A DNA stretch of 64,000 nt from the NCBI RefSeq assembly GCF_056746865.1, contig NZ_CM163382.1, one strand, 5' to 3'. Under the pieces are notes generated by a model that was not told the DNA's origin, searched no databases, and worked only from the letters and a program-made list of their open reading frames with translations. Below are positions 16,825 through 21,786 of this stretch, piece after piece; position 1 is the first letter of the stretch, and each line of letters begins with the position of its first letter. The translations under genes and the position numbers were made by a program.

Positions 16825-17811
16825 ATGGTTAAAATTCACATTTTAGATGCCGGACATGGTGATTGCTTGTTAGTAGACTGCGATGGTGTCAAATTGTTAA
16901 TTGACGCTGGCCCAAGTACATTTAGGTATAGAAAAAAAATTTCAGCCAAGTTAGCTGAACTTCTGAATGGCGAGTCTGTTGATATCGCTTTTGTAACTCA
17001 CAATGATGATGACCATATCGGTGGTTTCAAATACCTAATTGAAAATAAAATAAACATCAAGAGATTTGTATTCAATAGTTTATCTAACATTAAACATGTA
17101 ATAAAGAATTCAAGCAATAAAATATCGACCAAACAAGATATAAATCTTGATAGAATAGTGAAAGATGGAAGTTTTGTCTTTTCGACACTAACTTCAGATG
17201 ACTCTCCTATTTTAATCAGAAATATAAAAATAACACCTATTACTCCTTCAAAAAATATCCTTTTAAAATATTTAGAACAACAAGAGCGTAAAAACACAGA
17301 AATTAAAATATCATCTTCATCTGAAAAATATAGTATTAAAGAAGCACTGCAGTTGCTAAGCAATGGAAATGATATGTTTGTAAAGGATCCATCGGCAACT
17401 AATAAAACCAGTTTATCATTTATGATTGAGTATGGGAATTTTTGTGGATTATTCCTTGGTGATGCACACGAAGAAGACATCTACTCATATATGGCTAATC
17501 ATTGTGCCAATAGAAAAATATCATTTAACGTTGTTAAGTTAGCACATCATGGTAGTGAAAAAAACACGAGTTCACGGTTATTGAAGTTAATTGGTACAAC
17601 AGAATATATCATATGTGCGAATAAAACCAAGCATAATCATCCAAATAATTTAACTCTTGCAAGAATTTTAATACATGAACAAGAACCTAAAATTCATATG
17701 AGTAGCAGCAATCAGGAGATAATAAATTTACTCAATCAAATAAATTTATTAGGCTTCGGCATTACTGCAACCCATTCTGAAAATGGAGTTAATACTTTAA
17801 TCTATGAGTAG
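16825..17811 (+). CDS. metallo-beta-lactamase-fold hydrolase (ComEC-like MBL domain); first gene of candidate defence operon
   Basis: 328 aa; MBL motifs HILDAGHGD, VTHNDDDHIGG, GDAH, KLAHHGSEKN; strongly AT-rich; stop overlaps next start. Confidence 0.75.
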   Translation: MVKIHILDAGHGDCLLVDCDGVKLLIDAGPSTFRYRKKISAKLAELLNGESVDIAFVTHNDDDHIGGFKYLIENKINIKRFVFNSLSNIKHVIKNSSNKISTKQDINLDRIVKDGSFVFSTLTSDDSPILIRNIKITPITPSKNILLKYLEQQERKNTEIKISSSSEKYSIKEALQLLSNGNDMFVKDPSATNKTSLSFMIEYGNFCGLFLGDAHEEDIYSYMANHCANRKISFNVVKLAHHGSEKNTSSRLLKLIGTTEYIICANKTKHNHPNNLTLARILIHEQEPKIHMSSSNQEIINLLNQINLLGFGITATHSENGVNTLIYE

Positions 17812-19027
17812 AAAAAATGCTGTAAAAATAAAAGTCAATGATTCGGAATCAAGTGGCTATTTTTTCAAAGCAAGCTCCAAGGATGATTCTTTTGTAATTT
17901 CATCCAAGCACGGCCTTTGTTCTAGACAGTCAGATTGTGAAGAATTTCTTGATAATGTTCAGAATTGTTGCCGTTTATGCACTCAAGATTTAAATATTGA
18001 CAATATATCTTTTGAAATTGAAGGAAATAAGAAGCTAAAGCCAATAAGTTATTTCAGTCTTGAAAACAAAGATATTGTCATCACCAAAGTGGATGGGGTA
18101 TCTAATTATCCTTTAAGGATAGGAAAGATAGAAAAAGAAAAGTATTATACTTATGGTTACAAGAGTAAATGTGATAAGCCTGGCAGAATTTTATTAAATG
18201 AGCCAGATTTATTAGATGGGATTTGTTATTTCAATATATGTTCCGATGCAACACCTGAGTTGATTGAGAAAAGTGAAGAATATTATGGAATTTCAGGTTC
18301 ATTAGTTTTTGATTCTCCAGAAAAAGATGTTTTAACCGCACATGCAGTAATAACAACTAATGAAACCAATAATGACTTAGGTTCAGAAATATTACATGAT
18401 ATTGATTTCAAAGAAATTAATAACTTTTTCGGCTGTGAAGTATTCTTGGGTAAAAAACTCCAATTTCAACTAGATGATACTTTTAGTAAAAATTTTTCAA
18501 AGATTGGAGAAGTGCTTGTTAGCGACAAACTCCAAATTGAAATATTTATTTCATCTTATAAAGGTATACCATATTTTAATTTGACACCAATTGCTGATGC
18601 ATTAATTCAAAGTAAGTTTTATTATGTTTTTGGAAATGTTAGTAGAAGTGATCATATAAATATAATCGCTGCATCAAACATTATACTCAACAAATCTCAT
18701 TTAGAACCAGCTAATAAATTATTAACTAGCAAATTAACTGAATCGATATTATCAGCACCTCATATTTATTCCACTAGCATTGATGATAATAATTATCATC
18801 ATATTCATTTTAAACAAATGACTTCTGGTGATATTGAGCTCATAATATCATGTTATGGTGGAGGAGATGATCTTCCTAAAGATATAAATGGCACTTTAAC
18901 TGAGTTGTTACACAATATAAATACTTATAACTTAAATAAAAATTCAATAATTGAGAGGTCTTTTCTTAATCAAAAATTTACAGATGCACAATGCGAAATT
19001 TTATATGAGATTTTTTTGAGCGATTAA
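17804..19027 (+). CDS. protein with N-terminal trypsin-like (S1/DegP-type) serine protease domain and unknown C-terminal domain
   Basis: 407 aa; SSGYFFKASSKDDSFVISSKHGLC (GSGF...TNxHV-like His region), ENKDIVITKVDG (Asp region), YGISGSLVFD (GxSGxP-like Ser region) in trypsin-fold order; start ATGAGTAG overlaps the upstream stop. Confidence 0.6.
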   Translation: MSRKNAVKIKVNDSESSGYFFKASSKDDSFVISSKHGLCSRQSDCEEFLDNVQNCCRLCTQDLNIDNISFEIEGNKKLKPISYFSLENKDIVITKVDGVSNYPLRIGKIEKEKYYTYGYKSKCDKPGRILLNEPDLLDGICYFNICSDATPELIEKSEEYYGISGSLVFDSPEKDVLTAHAVITTNETNNDLGSEILHDIDFKEINNFFGCEVFLGKKLQFQLDDTFSKNFSKIGEVLVSDKLQIEIFISSYKGIPYFNLTPIADALIQSKFYYVFGNVSRSDHINIIAASNIILNKSHLEPANKLLTSKLTESILSAPHIYSTSIDDNNYHHIHFKQMTSGDIELIISCYGGGDDLPKDINGTLTELLHNINTYNLNKNSIIERSFLNQKFTDAQCEILYEIFLSD

Positions 19028-19053
19028 CTGATTCAATCGACAGAATTTCATTA

Positions 19054-19269
19054 TTGCATGTAATTCCTTTGGACCATTATTTAATAAAAGATAAATCAGA
19101 AATTAAAAATGAAATTATTACCATTGTTGAGAAAGCGTGTCAAGAATTAGACAGCAACATTTTAGATTATCTTGAGCATGGAATATCTATAAATCTATTA
19201 ATATTTCCAACTAATAATAAAGATGAATTATCAGGGTTAATGCAAAGGTTGATAAATAATTATGAATGA
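19054..19269 (+). CDS. small hypothetical protein (71 aa) coupled to the helicase gene
   Basis: ORF whose stop overlaps the helicase start (aattATGAatgatg); no motifs. Confidence 0.4.
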   Translation: MHVIPLDHYLIKDKSEIKNEIITIVEKACQELDSNILDYLEHGISINLLIFPTNNKDELSGLMQRLINNYE

Positions 19270-21786
19270 TGCTATTAATTATATCTGCAATAGAATAAAA
19301 AATAGTGACGGATTTAGTTACTGTTATGAAAAACTATTGATATCTATTTCAAAGAATCTATTCAATCCAACTAGCAGCAACCCCATTACTCAGCGTGAAT
19401 ATCAACAATTGCTAAAATTCAGCGATTTTTTATCTAATTCCGAAAAAGAAGAAGATCGAAACCTAGCGTTAAAAATAATATCTGCAATATATGATCTTTA
19501 TAAAGAAGATCATAGTTGCCAATTACTGACAAAATCCATCCTTAGCAAACTTGGACTTTTTGCCGCTGAGGAAGTATTTACTGATAGTGATATAAAACTA
19601 CCATTATCCTATGAAATTTCTAGCAAATACAGAAAAATAAAAAATCGTATAAATGGTTCTGAGTACATATTCACTAATCGACAATGTGATGTGTACAGTG
19701 AGATCATGCAGAATGATTATTTTAGTTTTTCTGGCCCGACATCCCTCGGCAAATCATTCTTGATTAAACATGCTGCCGTTGATCTTATTGAAAATAATAA
19801 ACTAATTATTTTCATCCTTCCAACAAAAGCTTTATTAGAAGAATATCTAATTGACTTAAAATCTATACTCAATGAAAAAGGCGTGAAAGATATAAATGTA
19901 AGTAAATCCGTATCACAAGTTGACAAAGAAAGTAAAAATATATTGGTGTTTACACAAGAAAGATATAACTCATTTTTATATGAAAAGTCTTATGATAATA
20001 TGGATGTTGACTTTTTATTTATTGATGAAGCTCATAAAGTACTTGACAAAAAGAATAATAGAGCTATAACCCTATATAAAGTAATAAATAACTCCATAGA
20101 AAAATATGGTAAATTAAAAGTCATTTTTTCCTGCCCAGTAATTTCCAATCCTGATGTGTTTTTCAAAACATTTAATATACCGAATAGCAAGAAAACAAGA
20201 AGTTTATGTATTAAAGAATCTCCGGTAAATCAAGATTTGTACTTTGCAAATTATCAAGATAATAATTTTGTCTATTTTGATTCTATTTTAAATAAAAAAA
20301 TTAATTTCAATGTAAATAATGCTTATCAAAATGACTTTGAAATAATCAGAGGATTAGCACAACAATCCAAGTCAAACCTTATCTACGTATCAAGTAAAAC
20401 AGAATGTATAAGGAAATGTAACGAATTTCTAGAGTATTTAATTCGGGAAAAAAAGTATCGATAACAACAGACGATGAACTTATTTCCGAGTCAAAAATAA
20501 TCATGGAGTATATTCATAAAGATTTTAACTTAGCTCATGTATTAAAATATGGTATAGCATTTCACCATGGTTCACTACCTCTATTTATAAGAAAAAGAAT
20601 AGAGGACTTATATTCCAAAAAGAAAATAAATTTTATCTTTTGCACATCAACTTTACTTGAAGGGGTAAACTTACCCACAAAGAATGTTTTTATTTATCCA
20701 TTCCCTAAAAAGACTGTTAACGATGAAAAAAAATGCCGATTAGATTTTTGGAATCTGGCGGGGCGAGCTGGAAGATACAGAAGTGAATTGACTGGTAACA
20801 TAGTATGCCTGAATACCGCTGATAATAACTGGAGCAATGCAGATGCTAAAATTAGCCTAGGTAATAATGTTATTATAGAGGATGAAATAAACTCAACATT
20901 ACTACGCCATCAAAAAATATTAAATTATTTTGATGGTAAAGTTAAATCTCCAACTAATGACATTATTCAACTCAGCTCACTTATTCTATCAGAAATATTA
21001 ACTTATTTAGATAAAGGTTATATAGGGCGAATTTTAAATACCTTTAATGAAAAGATTCGGTTTATGCTTATTGATTCAGGAAAAAAACATCTTGATCGTA
21101 ATAGAATTATTGAAATAGATAAAGTGACCTTTTCAGAAAATCATATATTCTCAACATCCATACACGCTAAAGCCCAACTCAATGCTAAAAATAAAGAAAA
21201 ATTATTGCGTTCTTATAGCAGAGAGGATGTTTTCAATTATTTGGAAACAATAAATGAAATATATGGCCTGCGTAACACCCCTGATTCATTAAACCAACTG
21301 TGCATTGTGACTTATTCGTGGCTCATGGGTAATACGCTGAATTTATTAATATCAAACGCTATTAAATATAGCAATTCAGTTAGAGATCCTATTAGCTATA
21401 GATGGGTTAAATTTGATAAAACCAATCCTGATCATATAAACGCAAAAATAATGGAGGCAATACAATGCATTGAATCTGAAGTTACTTTTAAACTTGAAAC
21501 ATGTATTGCTCATTTTTATCAGCTATGTCAATCAATTCACGGCGATGAAAATGCAGGCATTAATCTTTCACCTTATTTAGAATATGGAACATTAGATACT
21601 AACATCATAGAACTTCAAGAGTTTGGTTTCTCTCGTTTAGCCGCAATTGAAATTATAGCAAAGCACAAAGAGTGTGTTACATTCAAAACAAATGAGACAT
21701 CATTGCAAATAAACACTCAGAAATTAAGAGCTAAGATTGAAAAGCACAGTGTAATTGATAGAGAACTATCATGGTTGAATTTATAA
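19262..21786 (+). CDS. SF2 DEAH-box helicase of about 840 aa, interrupted by a frameshift in an A7 tract (ORFs 19262..20464 and 20422/20503..21786)
   Basis: N-part has Walker A GPTSLGKSF and Walker B FLFIDEAHKV; C-part has GIAFHHGSLP, TSTLLEGVNLP and motif VI LAGRAGR. Frame 1 is open from 20422; inserting one A in the run at 20448..20454 joins ...EYLIREKK to VSITTDDELISESKIIMEYIHK. Confidence 0.75.

Follow-up and report, generated by a model that had tools for sequence, protein, structure and literature searches.

A probably inactivated three-gene Hachiman variant of the HamMAB type in an ssrA-associated island of Escherichia coli

The window analysed here is a stretch of 64,000 nucleotides from contig NZ_CM163382.1 (NCBI RefSeq assembly GCF_056746865.1), and its positions 16825-21786 hold an AT-rich operon which, with a probability that we place near 85%, is a three-gene Hachiman variant of the HamMAB/Hachiman-MBL type, carried as cargo in an integrase-bearing island beside ssrA and probably inactivated. 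The operon consists of three genes in the order hamM-hamA-hamB, two of which are disrupted; they encode a metallo-β-lactamase (MBL)-fold pro-nuclease, a fusion of a trypsin-like protease with a HamA domain, and a superfamily 2 (SF2) helicase, respectively. Systems of this kind were already published in 2025, and what is new here is a further orthologue. RefSeq names the products 'ComEC/Rec2 family competence protein' (hamM), 'hypothetical protein', 'DEAD/DEAH box helicase' and 'helicase-related protein', an annotation to be corrected to hamM, hamA (protease-dHamA) and hamB.

Layout of the operon and identity of its products

The operon has a GC content of 29.3%; the window as a whole has 47.3%, and the genes on either side of the operon have 58-66%. 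Five open reading frames (ORFs) lie on one strand (Table 1), and ORFs of 328-427 codons in such AT-rich DNA are not due to chance. Stop and start codons overlap at ATGAGTAG (17804-17811) between hamM and hamA and at ATGAATGA (19262-19269) between hamA and hamB. An initial annotation of this stretch had described the AT-rich block beside GC-rich genes, the two overlaps, a convergent XRE regulator and adjacent iteron repeats, all of which were recovered; the MBL, protease and helicase motifs that it quoted are real and fall on invariant columns, and its trypsin-fold triad is correct, since H36, D90 and S164 are invariant. Its count of four genes has to be lowered to three because the 'small ORF' of 71 aa belongs to the 3' end of hamA, severed by the loss of one T (T7 for T8). 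That annotation had also noticed the frameshift in the helicase gene and missed the one in the second gene.

HamM belongs to a family of 326-352 aa. Its metal-binding or catalytic motifs comprise HNDDDH (residues 59-64), GDAH (212-215), HHGS (241-244) and HNHPN (270-274), and H59, D61, D63, H64, D213, H241 and H242 are invariant in an alignment of 19 homologues. The protein is matched by Pfam Lactamase_B, by PADLOC MBL models filed under LmuA (3e-61), RTasMBL (DRT-associated; 1e-48) and Avs1a (2e-35), and by NCBIfam Avs1a (3e-42), the latter at 144.7 bits against an equivalog cutoff of 420. In a comparison of folds, the AlphaFold2 (AF2) model (predicted local distance difference test score, pLDDT, 83) most resembles the beta-lactamase-like nuclease domain of ComEC (9ic4, E=6e-15); Pce and RNase J come next. 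HamM has about 51 residues beyond ComEC, located between the ComEC-aligned parts, and two coils bearing K-I-S motifs 62 residues apart lie within them. Between the metal-binding motifs, the residues invariant in the same alignment include I100-S101 and I162. Residues 95-101, in the first loop, form the lowest-confidence coil of the model (pLDDT <50), and the coil of the second loop has a pLDDT of 61-66. Cleavage of HamM after I100 and I162 is predicted because both invariant Ile residues sit in low-confidence coils within the residues exceeding ComEC.

The identity of HamA came only from the comparison of a homologue profile with PDB sequences and from a fold search. About 20 full-length homologues of 482-497 aa occur in Vibrio, Aeromonas, Salinivibrio and metagenomes, one of them being named DUF1837 by NCBI, and across these homologues (n=20) H36 (codon 17909-17911), D90 (18071-18073) and the motif G162-x-S164-G165 (S164 at 18293-18295) are invariant. 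The profile of 20 homologues matched PDB 9wh1_A, a 528-aa 'HamA C-terminal domain-containing protein', at E=1.2e-17 in two stretches, one covering residues 5-173 (the protease) and the other residues 280-485 (the HamA domain; 307-523 of 9wh1_A). Foldseek searches with the AF2 model (pLDDT 79.8) aligned the N-terminal half with chymotrypsin-fold proteases, including HtrA1, an astrovirus protease, Rv3671c and 3CLpro (E ~1e-6), and the C-terminal half with the E. coli Hachiman HamA 8zue_A (E=4.8e-6). The 71-aa C-terminal piece alone matched positions 244-303 of 310 of PADLOC HamA1 (E=0.0028). The G(E/D)xK motif is absent from E. coli HamA and was found in 4/20 homologues only, at non-conserved positions, and no Asp or Lys is invariant within residues 210-488 of the 20 homologues; the HamA half is therefore a nuclease-dead HamA. 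Protease-HamA fusions without D-GEXK have been described previously (PMC12799240).

Directly after H36, HamA carries a cluster of four cysteines (C39, C45, C56 and C59; window 17918-17980) that is invariant in the 20 homologues, together with a nearly invariant C55, and the cysteines also align in PDB 9wh1_A. The cluster could form a zinc site or else a disulfide pair; neither cysteines nor a zinc site are mentioned in the main text of Tuck et al. 2025 and Huang et al. 2025.

HamB carries the Walker A motif GKS at residues 163-165 (K164 at 19751-19753), DEAH at 255-258 (20024-20035) and GRAGR at 501 (20761-20775). Once repaired to 841 aa, it matched PADLOC HamB1 (PDLC00176) over profile positions 4-842 of 845 with E=3e-185, and its best match among solved structures was PDB 9wh1_B (E=2e-93, residues 6-831). 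HamA and HamB thus find their best matches in the two chains of one solved entry, PDB 9wh1.

Table 1. Positions in the window of the operon, its lesions and neighbouring features.
Feature	Position	Strand	Details
hamM	16825..17811	+	intact, 328 aa; MBL-fold (ComEC-like) pro-nuclease
HamM gating loop 1	17080..17139 (~residues 86-105)	+	K99-I100-S101; I100 codon 17122-17124; predicted cleavage site
HamM gating loop 2	17272..17340 (~residues 150-172)	+	K161-I162-S163; I162 codon 17308-17310; predicted second cleavage site
hamA 5' part	17804..19027	+	407 codons, then premature TAA; trypsin-like protease domain (~residues 1-200) and most of the HamA/DUF1837 domain
hamA frameshift	19011..19017	+	T7 run (intact T8); 0-frame heptamer T_TTT_TTG
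hamA 3' part	19018..19269	+	last 83 codons, shifted frame; contains the 71-aa ORF 19054-19269
hamB 5' part	19262..20464	+	400 codons; N-terminal domain and RecA1; PADLOC HamB1 PDLC00176 E=1e-89, positions 4-400 of 845
hamB frameshift	20448..20454	+	A7 run (intact A8); 0-frame heptamer A_AAA_AAG
hamB 3' part	20455..21786 (ORF listed 20503-21786, 427 codons)	+	RecA2 and C-terminal domain; PADLOC HamB1 E=2.6e-92, positions 413-842 of 845
PD-T7-5 homologue	10733-11905	-	389 aa, AT-rich, full-length; PADLOC E=2.6e-136; RefSeq hypothetical
Iteron-like repeats GGTGGTACAG(G/A)GTGGGACA	16170-16384	direct and inverted copies	in the stretch separating the operon from the DUF927 replicase gene
XRE/RstR-like helix-turn-helix gene	21941-22420	-	convergent; NCBIfam RstR 3.5e-10 (below cutoff), PADLOC capH 2.6e-5
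PD-T4-1 homologue	25968-27170	+	AT-rich DUF3883 gene, full-length; PADLOC E=1.3e-204
ALIL pseudoknot (IS3-family transposase frameshift element)	37222-37338	+	Rfam
tRNA gene	48697-48769	-	Rfam

Comparison with characterised systems and proposed mechanism

In the HamMAB system recently dissected in Pseudomonas fluorescens, two insertions obstruct the active site of HamM, and HamAB cleaves each of them behind a conserved Ile (Tuck et al., Science 2025, PMC12799240). This study showed that the cleavage unmasks a DNA-specific nuclease, that ATP holds activation back until it is hydrolysed in a reaction stimulated by DNA, and, by forced dimerisation, that HamA-mediated oligomerisation appears to be required, the outcome of defence being cell death or growth arrest (PMC12799240). 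The same model was put forward for the Klebsiella pneumoniae Hachiman-MBL/trypsin-HamAB system, in which the MBL is cleaved within two K-S-S motifs, and three oligomeric states of a complex of the 528-aa trypsin-HamA and HamB were resolved by cryo-electron microscopy (Huang et al., bioRxiv 10.1101/2025.09.03.673762). PDB entries 9wh1, 9whk and 9whu probably represent this K. pneumoniae complex, because of the 528-aa chain, the three entries for three states, and the alignment of H36 with H38 of the K. pneumoniae trypsin-HamA, the residue mutated by Huang et al. The E. coli accessions and the term 'Escherichia coli' had no match in the supplement text of Tuck et al. that was searched (PMC12799240).

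The initial annotation had regarded the operon as a candidate undescribed system and had excluded Hachiman, a judgement overturned by the HamB1 match, the resemblance of the protease-HamA to 9wh1_A and the publication of HamMAB in 2025. Its functional guess, a sensor-effector immunity module of nuclease, protease and helicase on a mobile island, was right, and the co-occurrence check that it proposed is borne out by a cassette conserved outside E. coli (see below).

The mechanism proposed for an intact copy is taken from the 2025 papers on the P. fluorescens and K. pneumoniae orthologues. By analogy, HamB would be held in a complex with the protease-HamA that cellular ATP keeps off, until a 3' overhang or damaged DNA arising from infection stimulates HamB to hydrolyse ATP. 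Hydrolysis would then lead to the release and oligomerisation of the trypsin-like domain fused to the nuclease-dead HamA, and the protease would cut the two HamM loops blocking the active site, here presumably after I100 and I162. The freed HamM DNase would degrade DNA indiscriminately and the infection would be aborted.

Like P. fluorescens HamM (PflHamM), HamM has two insertions that each carry a conserved Ile; in this case these are I100 and I162, with Ser as the next residue in both. It is shorter, at 328 aa compared with 42 kDa, and its sites are 62 residues apart compared with 100 for I118/I218 of PflHamM. The present system also belongs to a clade different from that of P. fluorescens HamMAB, being found in Enterobacterales, Vibrio and Aeromonas, and its hamA and hamB are frameshifted in this genome. 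With the K. pneumoniae MBL, it has in common the P2 Lys and the P1' Ser and a similar spacing of the sites (62 residues here, 63 there), whereas P1 is Ile (K-I-S), as in PflHamM, instead of Ser (K-S-S). HamA is 488 aa long compared with 528 aa for the K. pneumoniae trypsin-HamA, with remote sequence similarity, whereas the Walker A and DEAH motifs are conserved between the HamB proteins. Huang et al. link IS(G)N motifs of the Ile type with long-form MBLs (10.1101/2025.09.03.673762), yet the family described here is short and Ile-type, a minor difference; a short HamM with an Ile-type K-I-S blurs the proposed split between short KSS and long IS(G)N forms.

Canonical Hachiman (Doron 2018; Tuck 2024, PMC12278908) has in common with this operon the HamB1 helicase, the HamA/DUF1837 fold and the coupled A-B pair. 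It differs in comprising two genes, as opposed to three here, and in its HamA nuclease motif, which is missing here, the effector being a separate MBL nuclease activated by the HamA-fused protease. A canonical two-gene Hachiman was rejected on the grounds that D-GEXK is absent and that the whole HamA has no PADLOC HamA match. HamM falls in the same gated MBL family as AVAST type 1, which pairs the MBL Avs1a with the protease-STAND protein Avs1b, and as the Lamassu and DRT variants with the same trypsin-MBL module, whereas the sensor here is the HamB helicase and the operon lacks a STAND NTPase, an SMC-like LmuB and a reverse transcriptase. AVAST type 1 was rejected given the subthreshold Avs1a score of HamM and the lack of any STAND/Avs NTPase match to the operon proteins in PADLOC, and Lamassu was rejected given that only the MBL module matches an LmuA-labelled model, its partners being HamA and HamB.

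Outside E. coli, the M-A-B cassette with overlapping genes was found with unrelated flanks in Aeromonas veronii, Vibrio splendidus and an uncultured Pseudomonadota genome (a metagenome-assembled genome), encoding an MBL of 326-329 aa, a protease-HamA of 482-487 aa and a HamB of 839-840 aa, and it is also present on an 83-kb V. parahaemolyticus plasmid. In V. splendidus (L006 1744-4019), the neighbours of the cassette encode PRTase-CE and RVT_1 (reverse transcriptase) domains and may form a retron-like or DRT-like defence unit, a further instance of a defence-island setting. A search of a phage collection with HamA returned no match, so that there is no evidence for the cassette being phage-borne. 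Automated defence finders are expected to miss this system because this HamA clade escapes the models of PADLOC v2.0.0, Pfam and NCBIfam, and at the locus in the window also because HamB is split.

Frameshifts, allele distribution and alternative readings

With one T restored in the hamA run, the second ORF continues into the 71-aa ORF to encode 488 aa, as long as WP_000087768.1, and restoring one A to the hamB run joins the two hamB ORFs into 841 aa. These are the lengths of the proteins annotated in E. coli strain A10, which carries T8 and A8 and in which the 488-aa protein is WP_000087768.1. Over 12 kb, the window differs from strain A10 by 3 single-nucleotide polymorphisms and the two 1-nt indels only, and strain A10 and the window allele represent a ready-made isogenic pair. 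Strain 2021CK-01784 also carries intact hamA and hamB alleles. The two parts of hamA are contiguous in the intact E. coli allele and in 19/19 homologues, and the 8/8 state is considered ancestral because the homologues in other genera are contiguous. The T8 run itself is specific to E. coli when compared with the homologues aligned. The intact operon has four 8-mer runs, of which two are contracted in the window and the other two (16932 and 20726) read as 8.

The region was found once, on the chromosome, in 133/5426 complete E. coli genomes, with at least 99% identity in 132/133; NZ_CP141089.1, a 4.9-Mb E. coli chromosome, is filed in a plasmid collection. Among the matches listed are E. coli assemblies 100% identical to the window, every one annotated with the same split genes, and the frameshifts are regarded as real and not as assembly errors because the same sequence and split recur in these other assemblies. 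The 8-mer alleles were counted in 131 genomes by exact match of short T8 or A8 queries. T8 was found in 4/131 genomes (A10, 2021CK-01784, CH4796 and LSC52) and A8 in the same four, leaving 127/131 without the 8-mer at each site, and no mixed 8/7 or 7/8 genome was seen among the 131 carriers. From the sequence identity and this linkage of alleles, we infer that the change from 8/8 to 7/7 was a single clonal event. About 97% of the carrier complete genomes of E. coli have thus lost the 8-mer in both genes, which would represent a natural shut-off of a toxic defence soon after acquisition.

Both hamA and hamB are whole in three of the four 8/8 genomes. In the fourth, CH4796 (L010, NZ_CM166348.1), hamB is split elsewhere by an A5-to-A4 loss at the equivalent of L002 6550, which may be an independent inactivation or a sequencing error. 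Some carriers have insertions of IS1, IS5 or IS66, or a deletion removing most of the locus. SCU-313 (L011, NZ_CP051694.1) shows 27 differences across the 5-kb locus, and its assembly is considered poor in homopolymer runs because nearly all of these are homopolymer indels.

The truncated HamA lacks its last 83 residues, which in the model include two core strands of the HamA fold, and the split of HamB falls between RecA1 and RecA2. We consider the system in the window most likely inactive and its HamM an inert pro-enzyme that would never be activated, because HamA loses these 83 residues, HamB is cut, and Tuck et al. (PMC12799240) found the protease to be non-toxic when it lacks a functional HamA domain. 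HamMAB and Hachiman-MBL are toxic when expressed (PMC12799240; bioRxiv 10.1101/2025.09.03.673762), and since the overexpressed systems are toxic, their loss may have been favoured.

Several observations weigh against the assignment to an inactivated HamMAB system. Its assignment to this type is affected by the repaired full-length HamA having no match in Pfam, PADLOC v2.0.0 or NCBIfam, by the remoteness of its similarity to characterised systems (profile E=1.2e-17), and by residues 149-187 around the catalytic Ser being modelled at a pLDDT <50, so that the geometry of the predicted active site is uncertain. Its inactivity is affected by hamM being intact in every copy examined, by the split HamB, which might reassemble from its two halves, and by the slippery heptamers at both lesions, from which a little full-length protein could possibly be made.

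One alternative is that the T7/A7 allele is attenuated instead of dead, in that -1 frameshifting or transcriptional slippage, or reversible 8/7 phase switches, keep a toxic system at low dose; recoding would then yield full-length HamA and HamB at a level of a few percent, or the runs would form a reversible ON/OFF switch of defence. A_AAA_AAG is a dnaX-type slippery site. Both lesions lie in 0-frame X_XXY_YYZ heptamers, and a -1 shift restores an intact HamB exactly and HamA with one Phe-to-Leu change; attenuation could have been selected because of the toxicity of HamMAB/Hachiman-MBL on expression, and the 7/7 allele is the common one and leaves hamM intact. However, neither run is followed by a stimulatory structure, folding of the next 76 nt being no better than for shuffled sequences (z=+0.42 and -0.36), and no Shine-Dalgarno-like element is evident upstream of either site. 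Nor is the frameshift conserved, almost all HamA homologues from other genera being contiguous (482-497 aa) and the helicases likewise (839-840 aa), and only E. coli has the T8 run. The strict linkage of the 8-mers argues for one clonal event over frequent switching, and the IS insertions and the deletion in some carriers point to further decay. We regard attenuation as unlikely. If the frameshifts were instead homopolymer errors of sequencing or assembly, the real operon would be intact, and each lesion is indeed the loss of a single nucleotide from a long homopolymer, a typical error of long reads, with the SCU-313 assembly full of such errors across the locus. This is very unlikely, however, since the identical T7/A7 alleles occur in the listed assemblies from many laboratories and sources, 127/131 genomes being without the 8-mer, since the other two 8-mers of the operon are read as 8, and since the truncated 407-aa HamA represents a cluster of 683 member sequences.

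Two further readings concern the identity of the system, and both are highly improbable. According to one of them, the operon is a four-gene anti-phage system matching no named defence system, as could be argued from the failure of the databases to recognise the full-length HamA. Against this, the helicase is an unambiguous HamB, HamA and HamB match both 9wh1 chains, the combination of MBL, protease-HamA and HamB has been dissected in two 2025 papers, and the fourth gene is a frameshift artefact. According to the other, the genes have a housekeeping role, with a ComEC/Rec2 competence nuclease and a helicase serving DNA uptake or the replication of the island. The RefSeq name of hamM, the best fold match to the ComEC MBL domain and the location of the operon, which has the DUF927 replicase and the iteron-like repeats of the island as neighbours, agree with such a role. 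However, TIGR00361 (ComEC_Rec2) reaches 43 bits where its cutoff is 190 and aligns the 328-aa protein only at model positions 442-649, the MBL domain, and two insertions with a conserved Ile-Ser typify gated defence pro-nucleases. In addition, the three genes travel together as a cassette through unrelated contexts that have no replicase genes, and orthologous systems have been shown to act in phage defence (PMC12799240; 10.1101/2025.09.03.673762).

Island context

The island begins at ssrA (tmRNA at 7961-8323 by Rfam) and carries an integrase gene (8490-9737), AlpA and the DUF927 replicase. It is a compact defence island, because homologues of PD-T7-5 and PD-T4-1 (Table 1) accompany HamMAB. 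Phosphotransferase system (PTS) glucitol/sorbitol-like and Gfo/Idh/MocA oxidoreductase genes occupy positions 22781-25674 with a GC content >60%, far above the E. coli average, and the island is a mosaic because these GC-rich genes are wedged between AT-rich defence genes.

The XRE/RstR-like gene is a neighbour and not a conserved part of the cassette; no comparable gene was called directly downstream of the cassette in loci L004 and L006 (Vibrio splendidus), and in locus L008 an unannotated 171-aa ORF occupies this place. The position and arrangement of the iteron-like repeats are consistent with the replication origin of the island. A promoter and terminator scan of 16300-22600 gave fewer promoter-like sites than shuffled sequences and a single terminator-like site on the wrong strand, and was of no help with the operon boundaries. 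Rfam applied to the whole window returned only the tmRNA, the ALIL pseudoknot and the tRNA, with no match inside the operon. The window is identical to strain 118UI (L001) over 4500-25877, after which a 1-nt indel at about 25878, in the spacer before the PD-T4-1 gene, puts the two sequences out of register.

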